Shown in pieces: positions 5,327 through 21,066 of a stretch of DNA of 37,639 nucleotides. The notes under the pieces are model-generated. The model did not search any database, was not told the origin of the DNA, and saw nothing but the letters and a program-made list of their open reading frames with translations. Position 1 is the stretch's first letter, and each line of letters starts with the position of its first letter. Source of the DNA: an uncultured Lentisphaeria bacterium (lineage in GTDB: Bacteria > Verrucomicrobiota > Lentisphaeria > Victivallales > Victivallaceae); the NCBI GenBank assembly GCA_903840185.1, contig CAIMFA010000686.1:1-37639 (forward strand). Direction: 5' to 3'. Position numbers and translations under genes: made by a program.

Positions 5327-5749
5327 TCAATTTCGTTTCGACTCAGTTATCGAGAGACCGCGCTTATTGATAGAAATACGTACAATGTTGTTAATTAAAG
5401 TGTCTTTCTGATAGAATCGCTTGGTTAATCGGATACCTATTGTGTCCCCGCCGACTTTTTCATTACCGACTTCATAGGTTAAAGAAATGGAGGATAAAGG
5501 ATAACCGTTAAGTAGTTTAAGCTGGTCTTCATTAAGTTTATATTCCGTTCCATCAATTTTGATTAAAAACTTATCAAACTCAAATTGCCGGTTTTGGCTT
5601 GCAATAACTTTAACATCCTTATTCTCACCAGGAGTTTTAAGACCAATTGTAACCGACTGCCAACCTAAAAAATCTATCTCGGAAGAAAATACCTGAACAG
5701 TAGAAAGGACGATACATGCAAAAATATAAAACGATACCCATGTTTTCAT
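5327..5749 (-). CDS. Small secreted hypothetical protein
   Basis: The ORF-track entry is 5327..5764. The internal ATG at 5749 (MKTWVSFYIFACIVLSTVQVFS) is preceded by GGAGGT at about 8 nt and gives a clean signal peptide. I recognise no family. Confidence 0.6.
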   Translation of the reverse strand: MKTWVSFYIFACIVLSTVQVFSSEIDFLGWQSVTIGLKTPGENKDVKVIASQNRQFEFDKFLIKIDGTEYKLNEDQLKLLNGYPLSSISLTYEVGNEKVGGDTIGIRLTKRFYQKDTLINNIVRISINKRGLSITESKRN

Positions 5750-5955
5750 AGAAGCAACCTCCATAATTACAGTAAAGATACTGTCCGGACAGAATAATTC
5801 AATCCTTAAAACATAACGGGTATAGAGTCAATACTCGCCGCAGCTTTATCTTGACTTTACATTTATCTATTCTGACTCAAATATGACAGCGTTGATTTTA
5901 TTCATTGCTTGTGTATTATTTAGTCAAAGTAGAGTAGCTTAAATAAATCATCTTT

Positions 5956-7158
5956 TCATTTTTTTAGCATTATGTGGGTTGGCTGTGGGTTATTTTCCGT
6001 TTCTTTTTCAGCTCGTTTTTTATCCAATTCGTTAAGACGCTCTATTTTCTTGGCACGCTGCTCAAGTAGTTTCTGCATGTTGGCGTCATCAACTAGAACA
6101 TAAATATCGTTTACTTTTTTAATGCCTGGATAATTGTCCAGAATGCCTCTGCTTTTGATCCCCTGAGAGTTATCCGCAATGCCTCTGTTTTTGCAGCTAA
6201 CTGAGTTTTCAGGCTGATATAATTCAAGTAATATTTTGGCTGCTTTGGGGTCTCTCATTCTAACCAGAGCATCCACATACTGGCGGCGAAAGTTGTCATT
6301 GGTCCTGGCAAACTCAGCCCAGGGTAAAAACAGGTCTGTAACCCGCAAGTCCCCGGTTTGGGATAGTACCCGCAATATAGCATAATAAATATCAAGATTA
6401 AACTCATCAAAGTCGCCTGTACTCTTTATAATTTTGTCCCATAAATTGACGCTAATGGAATGATTGTTGTTTGTAATTAAGAAAATGATATTCTGTTTTT
6501 GCGGAAATGAGGCTAACTGTAAATCATCACAGATATATTGTACGCCCTTGGCCTGGTCGAGGCGCAAGATTATTCCAAGAAGTATACCTCGAATATAGCG
6601 GTTGTTGTTATAGTCGTTGTCGGGATATTTTTCCAGCGTCTTTTCAATTGTTGGCAAGTCTGATTTTTTGACTATGTTTGGAGCTGTATTGTGCAATATA
6701 CTGACTACAGTGGATACGACTTGCTGATTATTGTTGCTGTCCAGAAGTTTCATAAAGACATCATGACATTTTTGACTTCGTATATTGCCCAAGGCGCTCA
6801 AAATCGCGGGAGACTGATTTGGCGAAGCAGTTTCCAGCATTTCCAGCAATATTGGCTCTGCTTTTGAACCGCCGATAGTTCCAAGGAGGGAAATCGCCAT
6901 TGAGGACTGGCTTTCCGGGAGATTTCTTGCCAGTAGTACCGCCGCATTAAAAAGTTGGTCTTGTTCGGAACTGGTAACGGTTTTGCTGTCCAATGCCTTG
7001 CGTAGCGCAGCAATGTCTTCCTGCTGCTTATTCAGAGTTGACCGGATTTCTGCAATGTCGCCGGCTTGCTGACTGCTTGGGGGCGTTGTGTTACAGCCTG
7101 CATTAGCCCCGGCAATTGCAATTGCGACCCAAAATGAAGTAAAATACCTTGTTTGCAT
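5956..7158 (-). CDS. Hypothetical lipoprotein with HEAT/ARM-like helical repeats and a charged C-terminal coil
   Basis: 400 aa with a lipobox ..AIAGANAGC and AAGGAGAAG upstream of the ATG. Repeat-like segments include LLGTIGGSKAEPILLEMLE...AILSALGNIRSQKCHDVFMKLLDS. The tail is K/E-rich (EQRAKKIERLNELDKKRAEKE). Confidence 0.65.
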   Translation of the reverse strand: MQTRYFTSFWVAIAIAGANAGCNTTPPSSQQAGDIAEIRSTLNKQQEDIAALRKALDSKTVTSSEQDQLFNAAVLLARNLPESQSSMAISLLGTIGGSKAEPILLEMLETASPNQSPAILSALGNIRSQKCHDVFMKLLDSNNNQQVVSTVVSILHNTAPNIVKKSDLPTIEKTLEKYPDNDYNNNRYIRGILLGIILRLDQAKGVQYICDDLQLASFPQKQNIIFLITNNNHSISVNLWDKIIKSTGDFDEFNLDIYYAILRVLSQTGDLRVTDLFLPWAEFARTNDNFRRQYVDALVRMRDPKAAKILLELYQPENSVSCKNRGIADNSQGIKSRGILDNYPGIKKVNDIYVLVDDANMQKLLEQRAKKIERLNELDKKRAEKETENNPQPTHIMLKK

Positions 7159-7322: not shown

Positions 7323-9533
7323 TTACTCCGCTGGACTATTAAAGCCGCTGTTGATAATGATGTCTTTGCGCCTTGTTTCGGGAAAGACTTTCAAATCTAG
7401 AAGTCTGCCGTTACTGACAACTCCCTCAATTACGGTGTTTCTGGCGGCATGGAGTTTAAAGCTTGCGTTCCAGTGCGCAGGCCAGGCCGGCAGCAGATAT
7501 ATTTTGCCTGAATACATGTCTTCCTGCATCAGCATTGCCTGACATGTTTTGATCAGCACCCCGCCGTGATCCTGGTCCGGCACCCAGTCATAATTCGGGC
7601 CCCAGAACGCGGGGAAACGGGAGTTTTTGTCATAGTTCCCGGCCCGCTCAATGATGGCTTCCTCAACCTGATCCGCAAGGCCGAGATATGCCATGAAAAT
7701 ATCATCCTGACGCCATCCGAACACGCCTTTATCCTGGCGATATTTCAAGGCGTTTATGGCCGGAGTCAGATCCGGACTGCCAACGGCGGTTCTCCTGAAA
7801 GGAAATACCGCATAAAGCTCCGGATTCTCGCAGTTCCGCTTGTCTTCGTATTTCGCGGCCGGGGCAAACGCCTTCCCTTCTTCTGTATCGCGCAGCGGCA
7901 GTTCCGGAAGAATGCCTTTTAAATCCTGCCAGTATTTACGCTGACTCTCTGTCGTTAGTGCAGGTGACAGTCCAAGCAGGCGGTCGATAACGGCATACAA
8001 CCCTGCCAGCTCCGGCATGGGATCAGTGCAGTTCCACCAGGTCTCACAGGCCATGGCCGGATGCATGACCATAACTCCGGCATCGTCAGTCTTATAATGC
8101 TGTTCAAAAAATGTAATCACTGCCATGGCTGCCGGAATCAGTATTTCCTTCAGAAATTTCTCATCCTTTGTATGATCATAGTAGTCCTGCATCATAAACG
8201 TCAGTTCGAGCCCGGCAACCCATTCCCACTTGTGCCATCCGCTAGTCTGCAACGGATCTTCACGCAGCTCAAATGGCGCTTCCCAGCCGTAAGTTTCCGA
8301 GAAGACGGCGCCCCAGTGATACATGCATTCCGGAAAATAAGCGCCGTCATGCCCGAAATATTTCCGGGTGCGGTGGAGGCAGACTGGCAGGATATCTTCA
8401 AAATACATCCTGAACAGTGACTGCATTAAATCATAATCGCCAGAGGCGCACATGCCGATATAAGGCAGCCGGGTGTTCTGCCACCAGTATCCTCCTCCCC
8501 AGCGGCGGTAGTCGGCGTCCAGCGGCGCATCCGCGGGCGGCACTGTGAAGATGGATCCGTTGAATTTTATCGGATATCTGCCCCGTCCGCCGCAGGCATT
8601 GATAAAGCGCTGCAGATTATATGCGCGTGATACCGCCGCCACCGCTTTCGCATCCTGCTCGTCGTCCGCCGAAATATAAATATGGCTTCTGTTCCAGAAG
8701 TCATTCCACCATTTTGTGTGCGCCTGCCATCGCAGGTCATAATCCTGTTTTTCGATTTCACGGATGGTTTTAAGCATTGAATTTAACCACAGGGCAGGAC
8801 TGGAAGGATGTTCTGTCAGGACGTAAATGCAGATGTTCTGTTTTTCCGAGATTGCCGTTTCGAGCGTCCTCTCATCCAGCCGCGTGGCGTTGCCGGCCTT
8901 GATGACGGCGCCAAATGTCCGGTGCAGTATCGGATCGTTAAAACTAGGAGCATCAGCAATACCCTGATATTCCATTGTCATCGCCGGGCTGTCCGATTTT
9001 TCATTGTGATGATACCAGCCGATGCCGTCTTCAAGATTTTCGATCAGGGTATCCGGCTCCGCGAACTGCATCTTATCTTTATCCGGACAGTTCCTGTAGA
9101 TATCGCTTACCTGCGGCGGCAGCAGACAATGTTCTGTACGCCACAGTTCAATTGCCGCCTCGGCTTTCAATGGAATATTGCTGTCAACGGCAACGCCGAT
9201 GACCGGGTTATTGGCATCCACCCATATACGGATGCCGGTTTTGCTTTTGCCGGCGGCGGAACTGATGAAAATTTCTCCGGTCTTCAGTTTCAGGGTCTGC
9301 GAGAATTCCCCGTCCGAGGATACTGGCGAAGGCGTGAATTTTATTCTGACCTTGCCAACTTTCAACAGACGCGAGTCATCCCCCCAGCTGTCAGTTTTGC
9401 CGATGTAAAAGCACAAATCTCCGGACGGTTCCATCCAGACATTCAGTCCGATATCCCCGTTGCCCAGCGGCATCGAGCCGTGGTGATTTTCGCTTGGCGA
9501 ATTCCAGCTGACATCATGGTCTTCAAGTTTCAA
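7323..9533 (-). CDS. Putative cytoplasmic glycoside hydrolase, (alpha/alpha)6-type, GH95-like/DUF5703-like N-terminus
   Basis: 736 aa with no signal peptide. The N-terminal motif SMPLGNGDIGLNVW resembles the GH95/DUF5703 N-domain signature. The start codon is TTG at 9533, with AGGAGG 8 nt upstream. Family assignment is from memory of motifs only. Confidence 0.6.
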   Translation of the reverse strand: MKLEDHDVSWNSPSENHHGSMPLGNGDIGLNVWMEPSGDLCFYIGKTDSWGDDSRLLKVGKVRIKFTPSPVSSDGEFSQTLKLKTGEIFISSAAGKSKTGIRIWVDANNPVIGVAVDSNIPLKAEAAIELWRTEHCLLPPQVSDIYRNCPDKDKMQFAEPDTLIENLEDGIGWYHHNEKSDSPAMTMEYQGIADAPSFNDPILHRTFGAVIKAGNATRLDERTLETAISEKQNICIYVLTEHPSSPALWLNSMLKTIREIEKQDYDLRWQAHTKWWNDFWNRSHIYISADDEQDAKAVAAVSRAYNLQRFINACGGRGRYPIKFNGSIFTVPPADAPLDADYRRWGGGYWWQNTRLPYIGMCASGDYDLMQSLFRMYFEDILPVCLHRTRKYFGHDGAYFPECMYHWGAVFSETYGWEAPFELREDPLQTSGWHKWEWVAGLELTFMMQDYYDHTKDEKFLKEILIPAAMAVITFFEQHYKTDDAGVMVMHPAMACETWWNCTDPMPELAGLYAVIDRLLGLSPALTTESQRKYWQDLKGILPELPLRDTEEGKAFAPAAKYEDKRNCENPELYAVFPFRRTAVGSPDLTPAINALKYRQDKGVFGWRQDDIFMAYLGLADQVEEAIIERAGNYDKNSRFPAFWGPNYDWVPDQDHGGVLIKTCQAMLMQEDMYSGKIYLLPAWPAHWNASFKLHAARNTVIEGVVSNGRLLDLKVFPETRRKDIIINSGFNSPAE

Positions 9534-11908
9534 ATTCCGCGCCTCCTGTTATGATATGAGTAGATGATAATATACTCTATGCACGATTTATTCAAGTCAG
9601 GGAATCGAGAGGTTTCACGCTTTGCCCATCTCCACATCCACCTGATAGGTGACTCCCGGCACACAGGGGAGGAGCACTCCTTCGAGTTTTTTTCCGTCAA
9701 CCGAGACAGATCGCACACCACGGCCAACACCATGAGGATTTTGAACAGTGATCCGATATCTTGCCCCGCGAAAACGCGTTCGATGGAGAATTTTTTCCAG
9801 GCTGTCGGAATAACCGGATCAATGATCAAGCCTTCGGCGGTGGCGCGAATACCCAGCAGATATTCCACGGTTATCAGGAGCAGCCACGCGCTGGTGCCGG
9901 TACCGTAAAATTGACTTGAAAGGCCGTAGTCGGGGGAATCCGGCAGCGCAAAGTAATAATTCGGCACAAACAACGGTACCTGTCCATTTTTTTCGGGCGG
10001 GTTGTCCGGATTGGTGGGAAGCGTCCTGCGGATCAGGTCATACGCCTTTTCACCAAGGCCTTCGATGCAGTATGCAAACGCGGCGAACATCGAACCATGA
10101 CAATATACTGAGCCGTTTTCGGTGGTTCCCGGCTGTTTCAGGCTGATGCGTCCCGCCTGGCTGTTCCACGAGGTATAGGCCGGCCAGGTGATAAGCGGGC
10201 CGAAAGGGGTATTGAGGCTCTCAATGGTTTGTAACAATATTTCTTTTTTATCCGGCGAAACGCTTTTGCTGATCAGCGCCCAGGCCTGCGGATTAAGATA
10301 AACCGATCCCTCCTGGTTGGCGGAGGAGCCGAACGGTTGACCTTCGTCGTCGAACCCGGCCACGAAGCGGTCAGTATCCCAGCAATGTTTGTTAATATTT
10401 TCTCCCAGCCGTGCGTCAATCTCATTCAACCGTGCCGCGCTGGCGGTATCGCCGCGCAGCTGACAGACAGGAATCATCTGCTGCACGGCAAAACGGAATG
10501 CCATGGTGAGCCAGGTTGATTCGCCCTTGCCTTTGCGTCCAGGGCCGTTCAGCGGATCGAACCAGTCGCCGCCGCCGAGCAGGCACAGGCCGTGACTGCC
10601 GGTGTCGCTTTCAAAGTGATAGAGCGCCCGGAGCAGGTGTTCGTAGAGCGTTACCGGCTGTTCCGAATCCTTGAATGGAATTGCCTTGTCGAGAACGGAC
10701 ATATCTTTCAGTTCATTGAGCAGAAAGGCGATGCAGCTGACCAGCCAGTACGGCGCATCCTTGTAATGCGCCAGACAGTTTCCGCCCGGAGCCGAGCCGT
10801 CAAGCGCGTACCACTGCCATAAAAAGCCGTTCTGCTGCTGCCATGAGGCGTAATCAGTCATGCGGGCGATCGCGTACTCCGGATCGAGCAGGGAATAGCC
10901 GAGAGCATCCTGCAGCAGATTCCGCACCGGCATCACCGTGTGGCCCCGGTCGTTCCGCCCCATAAATGTCACCTGTTTTTTCAGCCAGAAATTGACCAGG
11001 GTGTTAAAATCGGAATCGGGCGTGGAGATGGTGAATATTTTTGAAACATCGTTCCAGTATTTCCCGGCCATCGCGAGTTCATCATCCCAGTATCCCGGCC
11101 GGGCCGATTCCGCGCGCAGCCGCACAATCTCTTCAAACGAAACTGCCGCGCCGCCGGCAATATGCAGAAGCAGCGATTCACCCGGGGCAAGCCTGACGGT
11201 ATAATGAAAAGCTCCCAGCGGAGCTTGCATGTGATTTGTTACGGAAGGGCAGCGCCGCCGGCTGACAGCCACTGGAATCCCGCTGGTATCATCGGAGCCG
11301 AAAAAAGCAGTTTCGCCGCAGGCATACGATTCGTGCGGCAGACTGCCGAACAGATAGAACAGATCCTTGCCGGGATTGGGGATGTCGTTCGCCTCATAGG
11401 GACTGCGGAACGGTTCGTTCCGGACACGGATAATGTTGTCAACGCACGCGGTTTCCTGCAGATAACCACCCGGATTGACAAACGAGTGCGCTACGAAATA
11501 GTTTATCTGCTTTGTCTCATTGCTTTCATTAATGAGGCAGTGCCGCCATATTTCCCGGTCGCCGCCGCGCGGCACCCAGGCGGTGATTTTAGCCGACAGG
11601 CCGTTGCGGCGCGATGTCCATTCAGTCTGCGCAAGCGCGTGAATGCACTCGAATGAATCGGGCGGAGAATCGTGCAGTCTGCCGAGCGGGCTCCACGGAG
11701 CATTATCGCCGTCAGCAATGTAGAAAAAGCGGCTTCCGGAAAAGACATCTTTTCTATTCGGCCTGAGGCATGTGCTTTTACCCTGACCGGTTTGTGAAAC
11801 ATTGACGAAGTAGGAGTCGTTAAATAGTATATTTCCCCAGGCAGCCGGAGTCTGCGGTGTTGTTATCCGGTACCGCGCTCCGTTGTCTATAAAATTTCCG
11901 TATGCCAT
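9530..11908 (-). CDS. GH94-like glycoside phosphorylase (cellobiose/chitobiose phosphorylase superfamily), apparently frameshifted near the 3' end; authentic stop predicted at 9615
   Basis: The N-terminus MAYGNFIDNGARYRITTPQTPAAWGNIL and the motif GGGDWFDPLN (catalytic-Asp region) are typical. After ..WKKFSIER the listed frame gives a non-homologous tail. The adjacent frame instead reads RFRGARYRITVQNPHGVGRGVRSVSVDGKKLEGVLLPCVPGVTYQVDVEMGKA-stop (stop at 9615-9617), which is the expected family C-terminus. Confidence 0.8.
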   Translation of the reverse strand: MAYGNFIDNGARYRITTPQTPAAWGNILFNDSYFVNVSQTGQGKSTCLRPNRKDVFSGSRFFYIADGDNAPWSPLGRLHDSPPDSFECIHALAQTEWTSRRNGLSAKITAWVPRGGDREIWRHCLINESNETKQINYFVAHSFVNPGGYLQETACVDNIIRVRNEPFRSPYEANDIPNPGKDLFYLFGSLPHESYACGETAFFGSDDTSGIPVAVSRRRCPSVTNHMQAPLGAFHYTVRLAPGESLLLHIAGGAAVSFEEIVRLRAESARPGYWDDELAMAGKYWNDVSKIFTISTPDSDFNTLVNFWLKKQVTFMGRNDRGHTVMPVRNLLQDALGYSLLDPEYAIARMTDYASWQQQNGFLWQWYALDGSAPGGNCLAHYKDAPYWLVSCIAFLLNELKDMSVLDKAIPFKDSEQPVTLYEHLLRALYHFESDTGSHGLCLLGGGDWFDPLNGPGRKGKGESTWLTMAFRFAVQQMIPVCQLRGDTASAARLNEIDARLGENINKHCWDTDRFVAGFDDEGQPFGSSANQEGSVYLNPQAWALISKSVSPDKKEILLQTIESLNTPFGPLITWPAYTSWNSQAGRISLKQPGTTENGSVYCHGSMFAAFAYCIEGLGEKAYDLIRRTLPTNPDNPPEKNGQVPLFVPNYYFALPDSPDYGLSSQFYGTGTSAWLLLITVEYLLGIRATAEGLIIDPVIPTAWKKFSIERVFAGQDIGSLFKILMVLAVVCDLSRLTEKNSKECSSPVCRESPIRWMWRWAKRETSRFPDLNKSCIEYIIIYSYHNRRRGI

Positions 11909-11950
11909 AATTGTTCCCAGTCGGATTGTTTTCCAGTTATCAATACGGGT

Positions 11951-14101
11951 TTATTTTAAAACGAAAGAGCCCTGAAGGCCTCTTTCAGAATCAGGCCCGA
12001 CCCATATTATAAACTCTCCAGGTTCCGAGCCCCAGGACATGTCGCTCCTGGTAAAGGCAAGGTCGACTTCATTCAGTTTAAATTTCACGGTCTTTGTTTC
12101 GCCGCGCCGGAGATAAACCCGGTCAAACCCCTTTAATTCTTTCACCGGCCGGTTTACGCTGGCGATGCAATCCTTGACATATAGCTGCACAACTTCCTCA
12201 CCGTCTGCTTCCCCGGCATTGGTTATATCAGCCGCGATTACGATCCCGGAATTTCCGGTCATAGTGTCCGGCGAAATGGAAAGATTGGAATAATCAAAGC
12301 GGGTGTAGCTCAGGCCGAATCCGAATGGAAATAACGGCCCCTGTCTGGCAATTTCAAGATAATTCTGCATGTTTGACGGGTTGCCGAAGATGTTGCGTTT
12401 GCAATTATAATAAAGCGGAATCTGCCCGGTTGTGCGCGGGAAAGTAACCGGCGTTTTTCCTGAAGGATTAACCTTGCCGAACAGGACGTTTGCTATCGCC
12501 TGTCCGCCCATTGTTCCAGGATGCCACGCATAGACGATTGCCGGAATATGCTCAGCCGCCCAGGACAGATCAAGCTGTCTGCCCGCCATGACCACGAGAA
12601 TAACCGGGATGCCGCAGTTATGCACTCTGCGGATCAGCTCCTCCTGCCCGGCCGGCAGCGTCAGCGAAGTAATATCGCGTCCTTCGCCGCTGCGCAGCGG
12701 ATGTTCGCCGACAACTAGAATTACTGCATCCGCCTTTGAGCTGGTAGTGAGCAGCGTGTCTTCAAAGCCGCCACCGCCGGTAAAGACGGTTGTCCCCGGA
12801 GAAACGACTGACTTGACTCCTTCCGCCACCGTGATGACGTCTTCGCTTCTGCCTGCCGGATTCCAGCAGCCGAGCAGTTCGCTGCGGCTTTCACTGAGCG
12901 GCCCCATAACCGCGATGCGTTTGATGTCCGGGGAAAGCGGCAGCAGATGATTTTCATTGCGCAGCAGCACCAGTGATTTTTCCGCCGCTTCCAGCGCGAC
13001 TTTTTTATGATTTTCACAAAGAATGATTTTGCCTGCGAGGTTGAAATCGGCATATGGACGCTCAAACAATCCAACCCTGAATTTTATTCTGAGCACATTC
13101 CTGACCGCTCTGTCCAGTTCTTCAACCGGCACGGCTCCTTTTCCCACCAGCTGAACGAGGTGATCATTGAAACAGCCGCTGACCATATCCATGTCAATGC
13201 CGGATTTTATCGCCATCTCCGCGGCTTCCGCTTTATCAGCGGCAATTCCCTGCAAGCGGAGATAATCAATACACTGGAAGTCTGTTACCACAAAACCGTC
13301 GAACCCCCATTCCTCCCGGAGCACGTCCTTCAGCAGATATTTGCTTACCGTGCACGGAATGCCGTCAATATCATTGAATGCCGTCATAACAGTGGCAACG
13401 CCGGCTTTAACCGCGGCCCGGAAACTTGGCAGATAAATATCCCGCAAAGCTCTTTCAGAAATATTCGAGTTGGTATGGTCGCGTCCCCCGACGGCGGCCC
13501 CGTAGCCGGCAAAGTGTTTGACGCAGGCGGCTATTTTATCCGGAGCGCCAAGCTTCTCCCCCTGGTACCCGCGGACCGCCGCAAACGCCAGTTCACTGCA
13601 AAGATAAGGGTCTTCGCCGAAGCTTTCCGCGATTCTTCCCCAGCGCGGATCCCGCGAGATATCCACCATCGGCGTAAAAGTCCAGCGGATGCCGGCGCTC
13701 GCGGTTTCAGCCGCCGCAATTGACGCTGTCGCCAGCGCCGCGTCACGCGACCAGCCTGCCGCCAGCCCGAGCGGAATTGGAAAGACTGTGCGCAAGCCGT
13801 GAATGACATCAAGCCCGAACAGGATCGGAGTTCCCAGCCGGGATTCTTCGACCGCAATTCTTTGAATTTCATTCACGGCATTTTCCCGCTCATCGTCCGC
13901 CCTTCCCGTCGGCATACCCCAAAGCAGGATTGAACCGACCCGGCCCTTGCGGACCATAGCCATCATATCTTCATACGAACAACAGCTCTTATGGGTCTGA
14001 TGCAGCTGTCCGGCTTTTTCCTCCGGAGTCATTTTCCCCAGAAGCTCATTTATCTTTTGCTCGATGGCTGAATCACTGGCAGCCGGCATTCTTTTTTTCA
14101 T
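11951..14101 (-). CDS. GH3 beta-glucosidase (BglX-like), cytoplasmic
   Basis: 716 aa with no signal peptide. GH3 motifs present: GLDVIHG, KHFAGYG, and nucleophile region GFVVTDF. The C-terminus is an FnIII-like beta-sandwich (VVQLYVKD..). Confidence 0.9.
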   Translation of the reverse strand: MKKRMPAASDSAIEQKINELLGKMTPEEKAGQLHQTHKSCCSYEDMMAMVRKGRVGSILLWGMPTGRADDERENAVNEIQRIAVEESRLGTPILFGLDVIHGLRTVFPIPLGLAAGWSRDAALATASIAAAETASAGIRWTFTPMVDISRDPRWGRIAESFGEDPYLCSELAFAAVRGYQGEKLGAPDKIAACVKHFAGYGAAVGGRDHTNSNISERALRDIYLPSFRAAVKAGVATVMTAFNDIDGIPCTVSKYLLKDVLREEWGFDGFVVTDFQCIDYLRLQGIAADKAEAAEMAIKSGIDMDMVSGCFNDHLVQLVGKGAVPVEELDRAVRNVLRIKFRVGLFERPYADFNLAGKIILCENHKKVALEAAEKSLVLLRNENHLLPLSPDIKRIAVMGPLSESRSELLGCWNPAGRSEDVITVAEGVKSVVSPGTTVFTGGGGFEDTLLTTSSKADAVILVVGEHPLRSGEGRDITSLTLPAGQEELIRRVHNCGIPVILVVMAGRQLDLSWAAEHIPAIVYAWHPGTMGGQAIANVLFGKVNPSGKTPVTFPRTTGQIPLYYNCKRNIFGNPSNMQNYLEIARQGPLFPFGFGLSYTRFDYSNLSISPDTMTGNSGIVIAADITNAGEADGEEVVQLYVKDCIASVNRPVKELKGFDRVYLRRGETKTVKFKLNEVDLAFTRSDMSWGSEPGEFIIWVGPDSERGLQGSFVLK

Positions 14102-14120
14102 ACGTCCGTTTCCGTTCTTC

Positions 14121-17100
14121 CTATTTGATGATTACCACGCCGTATCCTGCGGGGCTGGCGTGGTTGTTCTCGGTGCCGGACCACACCATCTGCACCTTGC
14201 GGCCGGATGTTGCGGTATCGGCATCATCAAGCGAGACGTCGAACCCGAACATATTGGTGATGTGCGCCGGCAGCGTGAAGCTGACTGATACGGTATATCC
14301 GCCGGCAGCTTTTTCGGCACGTACCACGAGATCCTGCAATTTTTGATTGCGCACAATGACATATTTGCCGGCGGCGGTGACGCCAAGCTGGACAACTCCG
14401 TCCATGGAATTTGCATCCTTCTGTGCATCAGTACGGAGATCGAAGAAAAATTCAATCGCATCTCCGGCCCACGGGGCGCTGCCGCTTTCTTCAGGAAAGA
14501 CCGCGTCGTCTTTAACCTTTACGACAACGGTCACCTTGCGATCCTGCACGGTTACGGTTCCGGCGGCGCTCAAGTCATTCCTGCCTTTCCAGCTGCCTTC
14601 GGACACGACCCGGTTCTGGTTGTCGATCACCGGTCCGCCCATGCGAACTTGCGCGGCTTCGTTGATGTCAAACCGGCCTGGAGTTGCGCCGTTCACCACC
14701 GCTGCTTTTTTAGGTTGCACGGGCAGTTCCAGGAGGAAATCCTTCGAGACTGCGCCTGAGAGATTTCCTTCAAGCGTCAGCGGTGTGCCGGTGCCTGATA
14801 TTCTGATGGACTCGGTCTTTTCTTTGCCCGCCGGTATGTTTAACGATTTGCGCATTTCCGGCTTGCCGGCGGCTTTCACATTAAAGGAGCACCGCAGTTC
14901 TTCATCAAACGGATTGCGGACTGTCAATTGCGCGTCGTAAGGCATTCCGGTCAGCACCAGTTCCGGCAGGCGGAATCCGATCATTTCCTGCAGCACCGGC
15001 GGCTGTTCCGATTCAAGATAGAACGGTTCCTCGGTAAGTACAAGCACACCCTCGCCATTCGTGCGGTTTCCGAACATGTCAATTCTGGTAATGGACTTGC
15101 CCTTGGCCGCGCTTTTTGCTACCAGCACCTCGGAACCGTCCATCGTCCACAGTACCGTAACGCAACGGCCGGTGCTGCTGAATTGATAGGCGCGGATGTT
15201 GCGGTTGAATGGGAGGGTACGTTCATACTTAAGCCCGGCCAGAATATTGGAGAGCATTAAATGAGCGGCGTAGGCCGGTTTGGGCGAGAAGTCGCTGTTG
15301 AGCGGTCCGCCGTCACTGCGGACGGTGTAATTGAAGTTATGCTTGATATCAACGGCTTTCGACTGCACGTGCCACTGGATTATGCGCCACGCCTGTTCGC
15401 GCAGGCTGAGCAGCGGCACATTGGCCCATCCGCCCTGGACTCCCACCATTTTCGGATTATCAGTTGCCAGGAAGCTGGTTTCGCTGTTCCAGACCTGTTT
15501 GCCGCCATCGCCGTGCGCGGCCATATAAGGGCGGAGTTTTTCCATCAACTGTACGGAAGTGTCCCAGGACTGCTTCGGTCCGCCCACGCTGTAAAAGTGG
15601 TAGTCGACAACATCATAATCCGCCTGCGGGTTCTGAGCATACCATTCCGCCATGCCGTAGGCTGAGTTCTTATCCGTATGGCTGGTGCTGGTTAAATCAT
15701 TGTAGGCAGCGCAGAATCCGCCCAGGCAAATTTTGGCGGCCGGGTCTATGGAGCGGATGATTGAGGATGTCTCTTTCAACCACGCGGCATAGGCTTCGGT
15801 TTTGAATGGATAGAGGAACTGGCGGGTATCCGCTTCGTTCCACATCTGATAATAGGGTATCCTGCCTTTGTACCGGGTTGCGAATGCTTTAACATAGTTT
15901 CTCCAGAGATTCATGTCCGGCGGCAGGCGGAACCCCATGGAGACTTCGCATTTATGCGATATTTCTTTGGGATTCATGAACGGTTTGCTGCCCCCCATGA
16001 TGACGGGATAGACCACAATGCCGTATTTATCCGCGATGGCGAGGAATTGATCGAAGCCGTCCCAGTAGTATGAGCCGGGATTCTCTTCGATAAAGTCCCA
16101 GGCGACCCAGGCGCGAAACCAGCGGATTCCCATCTGGGAAAGGCGGAACATTAAAGCATCGACTGTGGCGGCATCAAAAGTTTTGCGCCCGAATGGCCAT
16201 TCCTCGGTAATCCCGTAAATGGATTCTTCGGCGGGTTCCCGGATTGCGGCGGAGGGGGTGATGCTGATTGGCAGCGTCACCTGTTTTTCAACGCCTTCGC
16301 CGGTTATCGTCGCTTTCAGTTTATACCAGCCGAACGGAAGCTTCGGAAGCGTATACTTGTGGCTTTCGGCAGTGACTAATGCCGGTTTTATAGTGGCAAT
16401 CTTTTTCTCGTCCAGGTCAAAAACCGCGATGGTGCTTGTAAGATTTTTACCGTTTTTGGCCGGGAAAGACAGCGCCGTCGTAAAAGGGCCGGAACCGGTA
16501 AAGTAGCCCAGGTCACGCGGGGTTCCCTCAAATACCGCTTTGACTTTTGGCTCGTACACCCGCAGCGAGAAATGCTCGACCTCGGCATCGAGTAAATCCC
16601 TGCCGGGGCTTTCGCCGAATACGTAGAAAATGCGTCCTTTCTGCCATACAAATTTTTTGGCCATGACCGTGCGGGAAACTGCTTTGCCGTTTATCCACAG
16701 GGTTGATTCGTTTTCAGACCATCGAGTCTTGATCGAACATCGCTCTCCGGCATTGACGGATACTGCAGCTCTGGCACCGCACTGCGTGCCGCCTTCAGAC
16801 GCGTTCAAGCGGCTTATAACGGTGGCTCCGCCCAGGAACACGAGGTTGAAGGAATTTGGATCGGAACCCCAGATATTTGTGCCCAGTGCGAAGATAAAAT
16901 GAGAGGCTTTCAGGGTATCCCCGGAACTCCATTTCGGCCGGAAAGTACACTCAATTTCGTAGACCAGGTCGGGATTGTTACAGAGGTCGTCAGGCAGCAC
17001 AAATGCACAGGGCAGTCCTTGATTAACCGGTTTCAGGGTGATATCCTGACTTGCGAGAGTGGCGGTATCGCCGGTCTTTTTATAGATCAGGTCCGTCTTC

Positions 17101-17693
17101 AGCTGGAAGGCTTTCATATATTCAAGTTCTTCAGTATTTTCCACGGCGGCGGAGACTTTTGCCGGCTCTCCTGCCGAAATATCGGCGATATCGAATCTGC
17201 CGTTCAGTTCCTGCATGCGGAACTGGACAGCGCATTTAGTCGCGCCCTCTGGTACAGTGATAACCTCTGCGAGTTCTTTCCACTGTGTTGCGGGCTGGCA
17301 GAAGATCGCAACGGCATCTCCGGCTCCGGCTCCGGAACTTTTACCAAAAGCGATGCGCACCCAGCTTCCGCGGTCGCTGGCGGCGAACGGGGCTGATGAG
17401 CGATACTTGAAACGCACTTCCAGTTTGGTAAGATTGCCGAGTTTGATATTGTCAGCAGTATAACAAGCCATTTTATTGTCGGACACGGAAAGCTGTATGT
17501 ATTTCCCTGAGCCTGAAGGCATGCTTTGTATTGTCACGTCGCCCGAAAACGTTCCTTTCGCCAATTCTGTTGTAAACGAATTGCTGTAAAGCGTTTTGCG
17601 GGTTTCGCTCTTGCCGTTTATCTCCTCGCCGTTTGCTCCAAAGGTCAGGAGGACTCCAGTTAGCGCCAGTACAAATAATCTCGATCTTTTCAT
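14121..17693 (-). CDS. Large secreted multidomain glycoside hydrolase: CBM-like module, LamG-like module, clan GH-A TIM barrel, C-terminal CBM9-like module
   Basis: The ORF-track start is TTG at 17696; the ATG at 17693 has GGAG about 8 nt upstream. Signal peptide MKRSRLFVLALTGVLLTFGANG. Clan GH-A signatures are YYQMWNEAD (acid/base NE) and VWNSETSF (nucleophile E). The C-terminal DAIEFFFD...FGFDVSLDDAD resembles CBM9. The N-terminal module is shared with the upstream 316-aa protein. Confidence 0.75.
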   Translation of the reverse strand: MKRSRLFVLALTGVLLTFGANGEEINGKSETRKTLYSNSFTTELAKGTFSGDVTIQSMPSGSGKYIQLSVSDNKMACYTADNIKLGNLTKLEVRFKYRSSAPFAASDRGSWVRIAFGKSSGAGAGDAVAIFCQPATQWKELAEVITVPEGATKCAVQFRMQELNGRFDIADISAGEPAKVSAAVENTEELEYMKAFQLKTDLIYKKTGDTATLASQDITLKPVNQGLPCAFVLPDDLCNNPDLVYEIECTFRPKWSSGDTLKASHFIFALGTNIWGSDPNSFNLVFLGGATVISRLNASEGGTQCGARAAVSVNAGERCSIKTRWSENESTLWINGKAVSRTVMAKKFVWQKGRIFYVFGESPGRDLLDAEVEHFSLRVYEPKVKAVFEGTPRDLGYFTGSGPFTTALSFPAKNGKNLTSTIAVFDLDEKKIATIKPALVTAESHKYTLPKLPFGWYKLKATITGEGVEKQVTLPISITPSAAIREPAEESIYGITEEWPFGRKTFDAATVDALMFRLSQMGIRWFRAWVAWDFIEENPGSYYWDGFDQFLAIADKYGIVVYPVIMGGSKPFMNPKEISHKCEVSMGFRLPPDMNLWRNYVKAFATRYKGRIPYYQMWNEADTRQFLYPFKTEAYAAWLKETSSIIRSIDPAAKICLGGFCAAYNDLTSTSHTDKNSAYGMAEWYAQNPQADYDVVDYHFYSVGGPKQSWDTSVQLMEKLRPYMAAHGDGGKQVWNSETSFLATDNPKMVGVQGGWANVPLLSLREQAWRIIQWHVQSKAVDIKHNFNYTVRSDGGPLNSDFSPKPAYAAHLMLSNILAGLKYERTLPFNRNIRAYQFSSTGRCVTVLWTMDGSEVLVAKSAAKGKSITRIDMFGNRTNGEGVLVLTEEPFYLESEQPPVLQEMIGFRLPELVLTGMPYDAQLTVRNPFDEELRCSFNVKAAGKPEMRKSLNIPAGKEKTESIRISGTGTPLTLEGNLSGAVSKDFLLELPVQPKKAAVVNGATPGRFDINEAAQVRMGGPVIDNQNRVVSEGSWKGRNDLSAAGTVTVQDRKVTVVVKVKDDAVFPEESGSAPWAGDAIEFFFDLRTDAQKDANSMDGVVQLGVTAAGKYVIVRNQKLQDLVVRAEKAAGGYTVSVSFTLPAHITNMFGFDVSLDDADTATSGRKVQMVWSGTENNHASPAGYGVVIIK

Positions 17694-17739
17694 CAATCAA
17701 CTCCGTTTTCTATATGTTGGATTTTAAAAAATATGACCG

Positions 17740-17790
17740 AAAAAAAATCATGCGGAACGATTCCGCCGCTACGCAAACGCGGCGGAATCG
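17740..17790 (-). terminator. Strong intra-operon hairpin with a displaced T8 tract (attenuator, partial terminator or RNA-stability element)
   Basis: There is a perfect 12-bp stem: plus-strand cgattccgccgc at 17758-17769 pairs with gcggcggaatcg at 17779-17790. Read on the minus strand, the transcript carries cgattccgccgc (17790-17779), the 9-nt loop, then gcggcggaatcg (17769-17758), followed by ttccgcatga and then TTTTTTTT (17747-17740). It lies between the CBM-like gene and the large hydrolase gene. Confidence 0.4.
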
Positions 17791-17816
17791 GGAATATTTC
17801 TTGCAGCAATAAAAGA

Positions 17817-18767
17817 TTAATTAGTTTTGGCGGAATCAGTTGCAGCAGCCGGCTTCGCCGGCGCCAGCCGTATTTCCCGCACGTCAAGAGTTCCTTTACG
17901 CTGTTGCAGTCTGACCTGGAAAGACACTGATTCCGCTTTTTCGGGCGGGATCAATGAAAAAGCCTGCGTCTGCCAGGTTTCAGCAAGACCGAAAATCAGA
18001 GCGGAGTTACCGGCAGGAGCGCCTTTAGCATTATACCATGATACATAAATCCATGCACCGACATGCGGAGCAGAACCTTCGATCGAGGTTTGATAGATCA
18101 CCGACAATTCAAGCGGCTTGCCGGGCTGAACGGAGAACATCGCAGGCATCAGCATCGCCATGCCGCTGTCTGCTTTCAGCTCAAGTTCCAAGTACTTAAA
18201 CCCTTCCGGCGATGTTTTAATGGCACCATTCTCGGATTTTAAACTGCCTTTGCCGGATTCAAAATTCCATATCCGCGCACTGTTTTCCGGAGTGGCTTCC
18301 GCAATGGAAACCTCTTTGACGTCGATGAGTCCGGGACGTTCCTGTAAACGCAGTTGAAAGTTTATCGTCAGGGGAGCCGTCACTGGAACCAGAATTTTTT
18401 CCGTCGCCCAGCCGTCGGTCGGCGGCAATATGTAACTTTTAAGCACTGCATCCGGGTTGTTCTGGTCTTTGCAGAAAACGGCCACCCAGGTGCCGCGGTC
18501 CGGTCCGGAATCCGCGACAGCAGTACGATAAGTAATTGAAATGCACGCTGTTGTTCCCTGGGCAAATTCAACTGCCGGAGATGATATGGCGGCAAAGCCT
18601 TTATTATCGCTGCTTTTCATGCGGAAAATTCCGATGCCGCTATCGGTAACACTTTCCGCTTTATCCAAATTCCAGCCGTCAGTGCTGCCGCCAGGCTTTA
18701 ACACGTTGTCCGCCCATACTGGTGATGCGATAAAAAGCCCGGCAACTAAACATGTAATCAGTTTCAT
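17817..18767 (-). CDS. Secreted protein made of two tandem CBM-like (galactose-binding-like) modules
   Basis: 316 aa with signal peptide MKLITCLVAGLFIASPVWA and AAGGAG upstream. Two internal repeats of about 145 aa end in FQLRLQERPGLIDVKEVSI and FQVRLQQRKGTLDVREIRL. Confidence 0.75.
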   Translation of the reverse strand: MKLITCLVAGLFIASPVWADNVLKPGGSTDGWNLDKAESVTDSGIGIFRMKSSDNKGFAAISSPAVEFAQGTTACISITYRTAVADSGPDRGTWVAVFCKDQNNPDAVLKSYILPPTDGWATEKILVPVTAPLTINFQLRLQERPGLIDVKEVSIAEATPENSARIWNFESGKGSLKSENGAIKTSPEGFKYLELELKADSGMAMLMPAMFSVQPGKPLELSVIYQTSIEGSAPHVGAWIYVSWYNAKGAPAGNSALIFGLAETWQTQAFSLIPPEKAESVSFQVRLQQRKGTLDVREIRLAPAKPAAATDSAKTN

Positions 18768-18795
18768 AAAAACTCCTTTATTTAAGATTTTAAAA

Positions 18796-19464
18796 TTATT
18801 TTTTCTTCAGACTTAAAGCGTCAAACCATGCCGGATTGTACGGCACCTGCTCTACATGCCCGTCGACAAAAACTATATTTTCTGAATTACCCGGATGATA
18901 CCAGTTCAAGTAACCCATATTGGCAACGGCATACCACAATTCATAGACGGTGCTGTAGCCGCTGACGGTATCAACCGCCCGTATATAAGCATCCCCATGC
19001 AGCATGCCGCGCTCCGAAGGTTTGGTAATCTGTGTAACCCGCAAGGACTTCCAGTCAGTAGTGAATCCGCCGCGCGCGCCAAGCAGCGTTGTCCGTATAA
19101 CACTGGAGTCTGTTGCCAGTGCCGAACTTTCCGGACAAACCAGTATTTTACCGGTCTTTTTAGTGGCCCCGTTTGACCAGTTCCATTGTTTGTCAACATA
19201 AAACATCAGCTTGACAAACCATAGTTTGTTCAACGCTCCGAAATTTCCATCCTGTGCCAGTTCCGGCTGCCATTCCCGGTTATCCTGACGGTAGAATTCC
19301 ACCAGCGTCCCCACCTGTTTTAAATTATTTTTGCAGGTGGCATTTCTTGCGGTTTTTCGCGCTTTGCTCAACGCCGGGAGCAGCATTGAGGCTAGAATTG
19401 CGATGATGGCGATCACCACGAGGAGTTCGATGAGCGTAAAAATTCTCTTTTGTTTAGTCTTCAT
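18796..19464 (-). CDS. Prepilin-type N-terminal domain protein (pseudopilin-like, H-X9-DG-type paralogue)
   Basis: The ORF track gives 18796..19482. The ATG at 19464 ([32 protein letters not shown]) has GGAGGA/AAGGAA upstream. It has the FTLIELLVV methylation-type motif and a C-terminal [15 protein letters not shown] motif. Confidence 0.85.
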
Positions 19465-19468
19465 TTCC

Positions 19469-19537
19469 TTACTTTCCTCCATTTTTTTCTTGTTTATTTA
19501 AAATGTTTAAGACCAATTCTTTTTTTATTGTCTTCAT
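19469..19537 (-). CDS. Candidate 22-codon upstream ORF ([22 protein letters not shown])
   Basis: AGGAGGT lies about 9 nt upstream of the ATG at 19537. The stop TAA (19471-19469) ends 4 nt before the pseudopilin ATG. It is too short for the ORF track and there is no homology evidence. Confidence 0.25.
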
Positions 19538-19583
19538 GCGCTTAAGTCACCTCCTGTTTGATTATCTCCGCCCATTGCAGAGC

Positions 19584-19612
19584 AGTATCTGAATATGTGA
19601 TTTTTAAGTCAA
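19584..19612 (-). promoter_or_regulatory. Candidate sigma70-type promoter of the pseudopilin/glycan operon
   Basis: Minus strand: TTGACT (19612-19607), a 17-nt spacer, then GATACT (19589-19584), about 45 nt upstream of the uORF ATG. Confidence 0.35.
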
Positions 19613-19628
19613 TAGAATACGTTGTAAA

Positions 19629-20708
19629 TCATTTGACCGGACCGGTGCTCTGCCGGACAATCAGCTCCAGCTTAACCTTCTGCTGGATTTTCCGGTTCAT
19701 ATAATTGCTCATCATCTGAAAAACACTGTCGGCGGCCATATAGCCCAGCGAATAATAATCCTGCCGGATGGTTGTCAACGGCGGATCGATGTATCCGGTA
19801 AAATCAAGATCGTCAAACCCGGTTACCGACACCTGTTCCGGAACTTTGTAATGATGATGGTTCAGCCAGCGTAAAATCTCAGCACAAGCATCGTCGGAAA
19901 CAGAGATAATCGCGGTCGGCGGCTCCGGAACCTGGAAGAATTTTTCTGTCAACCTGTAAAATTCAGCCACTGGATTCTTATCAGCTACCGCGACAGAAAC
20001 CTCCAATCTGGGATCAAAAGCAATGCCATGATTTTTTAATGTCTCAATAACCCCGCGGCGTCTCTCCTTAAAATGATCGTGCATTAATGATTCCATCATG
20101 AACAGCCCGATCCGGCGATGCCCCAGATCCAGTAAATGCTCTGTCACCTTCTTCATGGCGTCATAATTGTCAATATCCTGATAACTGCACCCCTGAACAG
20201 TGCGTCCTTCAACAATAAACGGTATTCCGGCATCCTCCACCAGCTTGATCGTACCGGCATCCAGTTCGTAATCGTACATAAAAATGACCCCGGCCTGCAG
20301 CGAGGGGTTATTTTTAACCGCGTCAATAGTTTTTTTCAACTGTTCATTGGGAATTAATTGAAGCTGGCCATGCTCTTCCTGCACCCGCATAAAAGCCCCG
20401 GCCATTAAACTTTGCAAGGTTTTGTGTTCCCGTGCCGGCATGCTGAGTACGCCGATCAACACTTTCTGTTTGCGCCCGGCGGGAGAAATAAAAGTGCCTT
20501 TGCCGCGGACCCGGTAAATCAGTCCTTCGTTTTCCAGCTTTTTCAGCGTACTGCGGATCGTAATCCGGCTGACGTCAAATTCCTGGCACAACACCTCTTC
20601 CGGCGGAAGCTGGCTCTCCGGAGAGTACTTGCCGGAAGCAATATCAGTATGTATTTTCTCCGCCAGTTGCAGATAAATCGGTTTAAAGCTGTACCGGTTT
20701 AAAATCAT
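19629..20708 (-). CDS. Transcriptional regulator, GntR-type winged-helix N-domain fused to a LacI/PBP1-type sugar-binding domain (AraR-like architecture)
   Basis: 359 aa. The N-terminus ..IYLQLAEKIHTDIASGKYSPESQLPPEEVLCQEFDVSRITIRSTLKKLENEGLIYRVRGKGTFI is a GntR HTH. The remainder looks like a periplasmic-binding-protein type 1 fold (..GVIFMYD.., ..VTGFDDL..). Confidence 0.85.
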   Translation of the reverse strand: MILNRYSFKPIYLQLAEKIHTDIASGKYSPESQLPPEEVLCQEFDVSRITIRSTLKKLENEGLIYRVRGKGTFISPAGRKQKVLIGVLSMPAREHKTLQSLMAGAFMRVQEEHGQLQLIPNEQLKKTIDAVKNNPSLQAGVIFMYDYELDAGTIKLVEDAGIPFIVEGRTVQGCSYQDIDNYDAMKKVTEHLLDLGHRRIGLFMMESLMHDHFKERRRGVIETLKNHGIAFDPRLEVSVAVADKNPVAEFYRLTEKFFQVPEPPTAIISVSDDACAEILRWLNHHHYKVPEQVSVTGFDDLDFTGYIDPPLTTIRQDYYSLGYMAADSVFQMMSNYMNRKIQQKVKLELIVRQSTGPVK

Positions 20709-20915
20709 GCTTGCGCTCGCTGTTAATTATCGTTGTACTGTTAAGTATTATATGACATACTTGGAGATATGTCAATAGCATTTTGCTATGATAAAGTAAA
20801 GTTTTTTAAAATAATATTGGCATTCAGAAAAATTCGCGAGGAAAAACGAATATTCCGCTGGTGAAAGACTTTCTCTATTTCACGGACAGCCGCCCTGTAT
20901 AATGTTCTCAAGGGT

Positions 20916-20976
20916 CTTATGATGGGGGCTTATGGTGGGTCTTATGGGGTTTATGGGGTTTATGGGGTTTATGGGG
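20916..20976. repeat. Tandem repeat array, TTATGG-containing units (13, 12, 10, 9, 9, 8 nt)
   Basis: The array reads cttatgatggggg / cttatggtgggt / cttatggggt / ttatggggt / ttatggggt / ttatgggg, directly from the sequence. It is intergenic, downstream of pfk. Confidence 0.9.
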
Positions 20977-20977
20977 C

Positions 20978-20995
20978 GGGGGAGGATTCTCCCCC
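20978..20995. repeat. Perfect 7-bp GC-rich hairpin separating two tandem arrays
   Basis: gggggag (20978-20984), loop gatt, ctccccc (20989-20995). Confidence 0.85.
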
Positions 20996-21030
20996 TGTCC
21001 GTTCTGTCCGTTTTGTCCGTTCTGTCCGTT
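20995..21030. repeat. Tandem 9-bp repeat array (CTGTCCGTT x4, one T variant)
   Basis: ctgtccgtt / ctgtccgtt / ttgtccgtt / ctgtccgtt, followed by a degenerate tctttccctg. Confidence 0.9.
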
Positions 21031-21066
21031 TCTTTCCCTGTTTTAGATAACTGCGTATTTCGGGCG

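Follow-up and report, generated by a model that had tools for sequence, protein, structure and literature searches.

A pseudopilin-like gene in a predicted glycan-utilisation operon of an uncultured Victivallaceae bacterium and the recurrence of its gene order in Lentisphaerota

Proteins of the DUF1559 (H-X9-DG) type form a massively paralogous family of unknown function in bacteria of the Planctomycetes-Verrucomicrobia-Chlamydiae (PVC) group (PMC10632474, PMC2754498). They rank among the largest paralogue families of these bacteria, with 68 members in Planctopirus and 74 in Rhodopirellula. PVC bacteria, moreover, play a major part in the breakdown of complex glycans in the sea, in soil and in the gut, although they lack the SusC/D machinery that accounts for uptake in Bacteroidota. 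Here we analyse a 37,639-nt contig of an uncultured Lentisphaeria bacterium of the family Victivallaceae (CAIMFA010000686.1, positions 1 to 37,639; the window), in which a gene for such a pseudopilin-like protein stands between the gene of an AraR-type sugar regulator and genes for exported and cytoplasmic carbohydrate-active enzymes (CAZymes). Enzymes and regulator alike are ordinary representatives of known families, and the pseudopilin belongs to a known, uncharacterised one. The order regulator, pseudopilin, exported protein recurs in Lentisphaerota in a position-specific manner and beyond chance. We tentatively propose that the locus is a sugar-inducible glycan-utilisation operon, in which the pseudopilin would act as operon-specific envelope partner of the exported proteins.

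Several described systems resemble this locus in part. Pseudopilins of type II secretion systems (T2SS) and minor pilins of type IV pili (GspK; PilK with PilY1/PilC) likewise possess a short basic leader, Phe at position +1, Glu at position +5 and a hydrophobic helix, and in minor-pilin/PilY1 operons a pilin-like gene likewise adjoins the gene of a large exported protein. By beta-strand addition, a minor pilin can hold such a large tip protein (PMC13533445). In contrast to those systems, the Victivallaceae locus contains a single pilin-like gene where those have four or five, assembly genes are missing from its vicinity, the residue at position -1 is not Gly, and the family runs to hundreds of paralogues that are each found in another catabolic operon.

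Sugar uptake is the role of a second system, the archaeal bindosome, in which sugar-binding proteins of Sulfolobus with class III signal peptides are assembled by the Bas system. There, the proteins that bear the pilin signal are full-size ABC solute-binding proteins, which are encoded together with their ABC transporters. The bindosome thus shares with our locus pilin-type signal peptides on proteins for sugar uptake; the globular part of the Victivallaceae pseudopilin, however, is small and ABC genes were not found on the contig. A third system, also from the PVC group, is MUL2 of Akkermansia muciniphila (Amuc_1099-1102), which contains PilM plus a type IV-like pilin and whose pilus-type proteins are needed for the acquisition and internal accumulation of fucosylated glycan (PMC13174399, PMC12418764). 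While MUL2 is one conserved locus with PilM, the Victivallaceae type is a paralogue per CAZyme operon, and Pfam finds no PilM family match on the contig.

Polysaccharide utilisation loci (PULs) of Bacteroidota, finally, are likewise co-directional clusters that unite a regulator with a protein binding glycans at the surface, a secreted endo-enzyme and, further downstream, exo-enzymes. The Victivallaceae regulator is, by contrast, of the cytoplasmic AraR type, the late enzymes lack signal peptides and are thus cytoplasmic, unlike the periplasmic enzymes of Bacteroidota PULs, and none of the open reading frames (ORFs) of the contig matches a TonB-dependent receptor or SusD in Pfam. In the looser sense of a CAZyme cluster with a regulator the locus is PUL-like, with GH39-like, GH3, GH94 and GH139 (glycoside hydrolase, GH) products and carbohydrate-binding module (CBM) proteins encoded behind the AraR-type regulator.

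Gene order and its recurrence in Lentisphaerota

The ORF listing places seven co-directional genes on the minus strand between 7323 and 20708 (Table 1), all of them at the coordinates given in an earlier, sequence-based reading of the window (the initial annotation). In operon order the intergenic gaps amount to 146, 28, 123, 19 and 42 nt, in agreement with the 19-146 nt spacing reported there. An apparent 4-nt overlap of the last two ORFs, which had been read as a frameshift artefact, is indeed explained by the GH94 gene lacking 1 nt between 9770 and 9769 and by the next ORF being extended to a TTG; after frame correction the two genes are 141 nt apart. The same gene order is present on nine other metagenome contigs.

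Table 1. Features of the predicted operon and its putative transcription signals, in order of transcription.
Feature	Position	Strand	Basis or detail
Sigma-70 consensus promoter, TTGACA-17-TATAAT	20747..20775	-	12/12 hexamer matches; 39 nt upstream of regulator ATG
AraR-type regulator, 359 aa	19629..20708	-	GntR helix-turn-helix (HTH) and LacI-type sugar-binding domain
Regulator-pseudopilin intergenic region	19483..19628	-	Two overlapping promoter-like sites, 9/12 matches
Pseudopilin-like protein, DUF1559 / H-X9-DG family, 228 aa as ORF	18796..19482	-	Pfam, NCBIfam, alignment
Secreted 316-aa protein, two tandem CBM4/9-like beta-sandwich repeats	17817..18767	-	Sec signal peptide MKLITCLVAGLFIASPVWA
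GC-rich hairpin with perfect 12-bp stem; a run of eight U begins 10 nt past it	17740..17790	-	Between 316-aa gene and 1190-aa enzyme gene
Secreted 1190-aa enzyme: CBM-like N-domain, LamG-like region, GH39-like (clan GH-A) domain, C-terminal CBM9	14121..17693	-	Signal peptide
GH3 BglX-like beta-glucosidase (predicted), 716 aa	11951..14101	-	Pfam GH3 N-terminal, C-terminal and Fn3-like domains
GH94 phosphorylase (predicted), corrected product 764 aa	9615..11908	-	Pfam; ORF as read continues to 9530
GH139-family glycosidase (predicted), 716 aa from ATG 9473	7323..9473	-	9hmb 2.5e-124; 9hyq (BT0984) 5.5e-89

To evaluate how often this arrangement occurs, we surveyed 80 pseudopilin-centred loci from species-representative genomes among the matches listed. 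The main figures refer to 29 Lentisphaerota and 4 unclassified loci, with the other genes of the same loci as controls. Of the 31 same-strand upstream neighbours of pseudopilin genes, 9 are homologues of the regulator, compared to 3 of 273 for other genes (odds ratio 37, p=6.6e-8); upstream of pseudopilins in Verrucomicrobiota or Planctomycetota loci no such homologue was found. By Pfam, the upstream neighbours (n=30) include Peripla_BP_3 proteins in 12 and GntR proteins in 10 cases, while LacI, AraC, FCD and sigma-54 types occur once each. Genes at a distance of five or more positions, taken as controls, are for the most part housekeeping genes, and Peripla_BP_3 is absent from the families listed for 66 of these.

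A similar bias is seen on the other side of the gene. The same-strand downstream neighbour is signal-peptide-like in 17/29 cases compared to 34/258 for other genes (p=1.5e-7), and both large and signal-peptide-bearing in 13/29 compared to 13/258 (p=3e-8). Families encoded downstream of the pseudopilins comprise CBM_4_9, LamG, DUF4838, sulfatase, GH78, GH123, GH42, GH43 and heparinase, and the gap between the pseudopilin gene and that of its exported neighbour is short (16-58 nt). In Verrucomicrobiota and Planctomycetota the signal directly downstream is present as well, but weaker than in Lentisphaerota (signal peptides in 17/33 versus 74/398). In Lentisphaerota the pseudopilin is thus an integral and recurring component of CAZyme loci under sugar regulation, and the recurrent, position-specific order ties the family to individual sugar regulons. 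Compared to DUF1559 genes in Verrucomicrobiota and Planctomycetota loci, the position behind sugar regulators is seen in Lentisphaerota only.

Further contexts, which were independently gene-called and Pfam-annotated, agree with this pattern. They comprise (pil, pseudopilin; SP, signal peptide) GntR-pil-763aa(SP)-GH29-CBM9 protein-GH29, LacI-1075aa-pil, pil-316aa-GH39-like, pil-GH39-like/CBM9, GntR-pil-esterase and AraC/pil-...-GH123. Two loci illustrate what is kept over larger distances. In locus L091 (678-4655) the pseudopilin is 67% and the 316-aa CBM protein 77% identical to those of the window, and the next enzyme, a paralogue, is 29% identical. In L092 (22-4329), from another lineage, a pseudopilin of 47% identity is directly followed by a GH39-like/CBM9 enzyme of 33% identity, with no CBM protein between them. 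The pseudopilin hence goes more closely with the exported protein next to it than with the set of enzymes.

One could object that these genes are merely abundant, mobile paralogues which tend to settle at the 5' ends of regulated operons or serve a general envelope role, their adjacency reflecting nothing but CAZyme-rich genomes. Such an absence of specific coupling would be in line with the enormous size of the family, with the heterogeneous neighbours in Verrucomicrobiota and Planctomycetota, where neither a regulator nor a CAZyme pattern emerges, with the stress response of paralogues in R. baltica, and with the solitary orthologues of the 1190-aa enzyme described below. We nevertheless consider it improbable, since the enrichment is position-specific within the same loci (regulator at -1, signal-peptide protein at +1) and since the pseudopilin-CBM pair and the pseudopilin-GH39-like pair are both kept across species at the identities given above.

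We found no description of the regulator-pseudopilin-exoprotein cassette in the searchable literature, nor anything that links pseudopilins to Lentisphaerota CAZyme loci; a paper on laminarin and PVC bacteria and a paper on Lentisphaerae phages do not mention pilins. As a separate observation, in planctomycetal loci (such as L025, L032, L049, L053, L074 and L087) the DUF1559 gene is often followed by a same-strand ORF of 110-190 aa, a two-gene pattern unlike the Lentisphaerota cassette.

The pseudopilin and its leader

The likely start of the pseudopilin is the second ATG of the ORF at 19464, which results in the leader MKTKQKRI before FTLIELLVV. The protein thereby carries a class III signature, namely an 8-residue basic leader, Phe at +1, Glu at +5 and a hydrophobic helix of about 20 residues. 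Its N-terminus is recognised as N_methyl by Pfam (21.5 bits, cut-off 21.2) and as TIGR02532 by NCBIfam (22.8 versus 16.3), with the competence pilin ComGC as best NCBIfam match. The match to DUF1559 (PF07596) reaches 28.7 bits at a gathering threshold of 23.3 and spans only positions 2-66 of the 268 profile positions. The protein thus differs from other DUF1559 members in that it matches the first quarter of the Pfam model only, and with about 220 aa it is shorter than planctomycetal members (300-370 aa). The family alignment contains two conserved Cys residues and a C-terminal H-X10-DGHV motif, with a hypervariable middle between conserved ends. While the family membership given in the initial annotation is corroborated by the PF07596 match, the H-X9-DG spacing is not: it is H196-X10-D207-G208-H209 here, and kept as such in 30 relatives.

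Homologues carry the H-X9-DG protein name in JGI and NCBI annotation and are named as Victivallaceae or Lentisphaerota metagenome-assembled genomes, as are cluster members with identities of at least 90%. Profile matches extend to 381,217 clusters of 50% identity at E<=1e-3 and to 38,904 at E<=1e-30, which bears out the previously claimed massive expansion of a family whose role is unresolved; its function is stated to be unknown (PMC10632474).

Regarding the fold, the AlphaFold2 (AF2) model (mean confidence, pLDDT, 73) consists of a helix (residues 17-67) and strands at 159-162, 200-205 and 210-214. It is compatible with a pilin-like fold without establishing one: Foldseek returns no match below E=1 in the PDB, and a 30-sequence profile matches solved pilins over the helix only. 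A lectin or CBM fold was not detected by Pfam, Foldseek or profile search.

At position -1, prepilin peptidases canonically require Gly, rarely Ala or Ser. The pseudopilin has Ile at this position (leader region 19441-19464), which makes canonical cleavage and filament assembly uncertain. This is not a peculiarity of a single protein. Among family members in the surveyed loci, G or A is found at -1 in 5/40 cases in Lentisphaerota, compared to 24/24 in Planctomycetota and 30/32 in Verrucomicrobiota, and among the 250 closest relatives in 22%. The rarity of Gly or Ala in Lentisphaerota implies that the prepilin peptidase is unusual or that cleavage does not take place. No description of a Lentisphaerota-specific loss of the -1 Gly was found in the searchable literature, and this loss of the peptidase site poses a second, independent puzzle, which concerns processing.

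These numbers would be explained if the protein remained uncleaved, as a signal-anchored inner-membrane protein with a periplasmic domain, acting on oligosaccharides or exported proteins of the regulon as tethered solute-binding or chaperone-like factor in a manner reminiscent of the archaeal bindosome. DUF1559 has indeed been called a solute-binding family (PMC2754498) and is filed by Pfam as SBP_bac_10 (SBP, solute-binding protein), and one paralogue adjoins a sodium:solute symporter (SSF) gene. We did not, however, find an experimental basis for the Pfam label. Neither the AF2 model nor Foldseek reveals an SBP fold, and the globular part of about 170 aa is far below the known size of such folds. 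Moreover, Phe +1, Glu +5 and the whole helix are invariant across paralogues which are otherwise only about 35% identical, a constraint that would be difficult to account for if cleavage, N-methylation and filament packing no longer mattered. An uncleaved anchor therefore appears to us the least probable of the explanations discussed here.

Proposed role of the pseudopilin

As predicted initially, the regulator is an AraR-like hybrid. Pfam identifies both a GntR HTH (residues 12-74, 1.2e-18) and a Peripla_BP_3 domain (residues 189-355, 2.6e-31), the architecture of Bacillus subtilis AraR-type regulators, in which a GntR HTH is fused to a LacI/GalR sugar-binding domain. The region between the regulator and pseudopilin genes is the presumed regulated promoter/operator. 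No significant palindrome was found in it, and in this the Victivallaceae regulator differs from B. subtilis AraR, as no convincing operator could be assigned. An operator common to both promoter regions was considered and dropped, the two having only one 8-mer in common, which is within chance. The 12/12 sigma-70 match in front of the regulator gene is unusually strong for the promoter of a repressor.

In the mechanism we favour, the AraR-type repressor, made from its own consensus promoter, would sense a sugar in the cytoplasm and release the downstream promoter. The early products would be three envelope proteins, i.e. the pseudopilin, the secreted tandem-CBM protein and the secreted GH39-like endo-glycanase with its CBM9. 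A type II secretion or type IV filament machine whose genes lie elsewhere may insert and assemble the pseudopilin, which could then act like a minor pilin in carrying or releasing a large protein that is not itself a pilin, comparable to PilK and PilY1. By this partnership the CBM protein and the endo-glycanase would be secreted or tethered at the cell surface, fragments would enter the cell via transporters encoded elsewhere, and the late products, the GH3, GH94 and GH139-type enzymes, would finish them in the cytoplasm. The hairpin between the 316-aa and 1190-aa genes is a possible attenuator or partial terminator that could split the operon, its U-run being set apart from the long stem, which bears on termination efficiency. 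With such a signal in place, the pseudopilin and CBM genes may outexpress the enzymes or be partly separately expressed.

The initial annotation had proposed a different role, in which such pseudopilins belong to a PUL-like apparatus for glycan capture or import that uses type II secretion or type IV pilus machinery. In a more detailed form of this model, the pseudopilin would be the glycan-specific subunit of a retractile pseudopilus that captures the polymer or large fragments and pulls them via a secretin into the periplasm, similar to the handling of DNA by competence pili, and so replaces SusC/D. The initial annotation had pointed to the lack of a transporter, and in the window this holds. 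Pfam finds no component of the major facilitator superfamily (MFS), ABC, phosphotransferase system (PTS), SSF or TonB/Sus type on the whole 37.6-kb contig, with one ORF of eight transmembrane segments (8-TM) remaining unclassifiable. This ORF (34478-35962, minus strand, 494 aa, with 8 or more hydrophobic segments) matches nothing in Pfam up to E=5 and is a possible transporter, located 14 kb upstream of the operon behind unrelated genes. The only transport-related Pfam match on the contig is an AcrB/HlyD efflux pair 2.6 kb downstream of the operon. The claim does not extend to such cassettes in general. In a 5.7-Mb Victivallales-type genome (L098, 6620-11709) a pseudopilin paralogue lies between a LacI regulator and a 775-aa SSF symporter, and polytopic membrane proteins are not depleted in the gene runs downstream of pseudopilins (7/71 genes). 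The missing transporter is thus a trait of the Victivallaceae locus and not of the cassette type. The L098 symporter is unusually long, and a second SSF gene lies nearby.

Several observations speak for glycan import. Apart from the missing outer- or inner-membrane sugar transporter and the paralogue placed between regulator and symporter, these are the recurrent pattern of one pseudopilin per sugar regulon, the hypervariable middle of the protein, as expected of a binding surface, and the ComGC-like N-terminus. Moreover, mucin uptake by Akkermansia needs pilus-type MUL genes, and PVC bacteria take up labelled glycans without SusC/D (PMC13174399, PMC12418764). Import by the pseudopilin nonetheless seems the less probable role to us. 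It is the neighbouring exported protein that shows the closest linkage, rather than transporters or cytoplasmic enzymes, and this suits a protein partner no less well than an importer of glycan. Furthermore, the pseudopilin lacks a detectable lectin or CBM fold, dedicated CBM proteins are already encoded in the operon, 69%-identical pseudopilins serve operons with different enzyme sets, the non-Gly residue at -1 makes filament assembly doubtful, and neither a retraction ATPase nor a secretin was found nearby.

Some of these points also weigh against a pseudopilin that partners the exported proteins. This applies to the Ile at -1, and to the absence from the contig of genes for a prepilin peptidase and for an ATPase/platform/secretin assembly machine as judged by Pfam; in the survey, T2SS ATPase genes near pseudopilins yielded one match in 80 loci, in a Kiritimatiellia locus, which is uninformative. 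The operon headed by the 69%-identical pseudopilin encodes GH29 fucosidases, and its regulator is only 34% identical over the HTH. The paralogue in L098 is directly followed by a symporter and not by an exoprotein. Solitary genes encode the orthologues most similar to the 1190-aa enzyme (60-64% identity), and neither a pseudopilin nor a regulator or CAZyme lies in their vicinity, so that this type of enzyme does not need a dedicated pseudopilin everywhere. No domain is common to all downstream proteins (all-against-all phmmer, 39/61 singletons). The pseudopilin model is of moderate confidence only and has no structural relative. Lastly, the survey ORFs stem from our own caller and the signal peptides from a crude rule, which is a weakness of the counts. 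A docking domain common to the proteins downstream of pseudopilins was likewise considered and rejected because of the singletons, and their C-termini carry no clear common peptide.

Enzymes, substrate and significance for PVC bacteria

The division of the products into exported and cytoplasmic ones agrees with the compartment logic put forward initially: the 316-aa and 1190-aa products carry Sec signal peptides, whereas the GH3, GH94 and GH139 products have none. The 316-aa protein matches no Pfam or NCBIfam family of its own. Its repeats (43-166 and 170-312), however, are two copies of the domain formed by residues 44-187 of the 1190-aa enzyme (E=7e-18, phmmer), and a clustered relative matches CBM_4_9, which together with the signal peptide upholds its description as a secreted tandem CBM-like protein.

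For the 1190-aa enzyme, a CBM/LamG/clan GH-A/CBM9 composition had been suggested. Signal peptide, C-terminal CBM9 (1.5e-11, Pfam) and clan GH-A motif are present, the LamG match is weak (E=0.13), and the central domain can be narrowed down to a GH39-like one. The sole significant sequence matches of this domain are 5jvk (GH39wh2, 4.6e-8) and PslG (2e-4), and W618-N619-E620 and the nucleophile E738 are invariant in six orthologues. Pfam GH39 stays below threshold in the enzyme and is weak in its paralogues. The AF2 model is poor (pLDDT 57, 7-sequence alignment) and Foldseek matches it to generic TIM-barrel and sandwich glycosidases, so that the assignment as GH39-like endo-enzyme is drawn from the sequence.

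The GH3 protein scores 655.6 bits against BglX at a cut-off of 666, with a match that begins at profile position 32 (NCBIfam). The GH94 protein is recognised by Pfam with its catalytic and supersandwich domains (1.2e-67 and 7.5e-25) and contains the GDWFD catalytic motif. The 1-nt deletion (TTC^CGC, 9769-9770), which can be either an assembly error or a real mutation, replaces its last 51 residues by 79 unrelated ones. Restoring one base yields a product of 764 aa that ends at 9615 and has the same length on two longer assemblies of the operon; the conserved C-terminal strand region is regained, and the score for cellobiose phosphorylase rises from 243 to 290 bits. The corrected protein scores 295 bits to the cellobionic acid phosphorylase of S. 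degradans. The Arg and Lys of its GRISLKQPG segment align with R609 and K613 of that enzyme, where cellobiose phosphorylase has Glu and Tyr; the position of S. degradans Q190 is occupied by Arg. According to Nam et al. 2015, R609 and K613 reportedly bind the acceptor carboxylate. We thus predict a sugar-acid-type acceptor site, a specificity that, given the near-equal overall scores, we can only infer.

The last gene had been read as a GH95/DUF5703-like hydrolase. Pfam and NCBIfam indeed return DUF5703_N with a weak GH95 match, and a literature search for DUF5703 found no papers. The product nevertheless belongs to GH139, a 2-O-methyl-fucosidase family, judging by its match to 9hmb (E=2.5e-124), with its own activity and specificity predicted. 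9hmb and 9hyq are the two GH139 structures of PMC12282258, where N412 is assigned as base and E561 as acid of BT0984, with Q411, W403, E641, W683 and D723 as key binders. All seven residues are conserved in the product of the last gene, and N729 is replaced by Asp.

Taken together, the GH139 enzyme, the carboxylate-binding GH94 and the GH39-like endo-enzyme point to an acidic heteroglycan and not to plain beta-glucan. The beta-glucoside pathway assumed initially is therefore too narrow, and a pure beta-glucan (laminarin, cellodextrin or beta-1,2-glucan) was rejected as substrate because of the same three enzymes. Most likely, the substrate is an acidic heteroglycan with fucose or methyl-fucose residues and, in addition, beta-glucosides.

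The surroundings of the operon contain further features. Downstream of the GH139 gene two more same-strand genes follow (5327-7158, minus strand). The first, after a gap of 164 nt, encodes a 400-aa HEAT-repeat protein with a lipoprotein-like N-terminus, and the second a 145-aa signal-peptide protein of no family. As no terminator-like site was found between GH139 and these genes, they might belong to the operon. On the other side, between the PFK stop codon and the regulator promoter (20936-21031), lie two blocks of 9-nt tandem repeats, on the plus strand TGGGGTTTA in about 4 copies and TGTCCGTTC/T in 4. A polyphosphate module unrelated to the glycan operon (22546-31765; PPK1, PPX/GppA, NUDIX and a CHAD-domain protein) is adjoined by a 972-aa Ser/Thr kinase with HEAT repeats.

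If the pseudopilin proved dispensable, the locus would be an ordinary CAZyme cluster for a heteroglycan. The cassette makes the function of the family testable, as it offers one operon, one pseudopilin and one glycan. A wider reading, which we regard as rather unlikely at present, is that in Lentisphaerota each sugar regulon possesses its own altered-signal pseudopilin working on a shared type II/IV machine. Such cassettes would be the equivalent of PULs, their substrate-specific pseudopilins capturing the glycan, or else holding the proteins that capture it, and powering its transfer through the outer membrane. Should this be true, it would explain the SusC/D-independent 'selfish' uptake of PVC bacteria and would give the DUF1559 / H-X9-DG superfamily a function.

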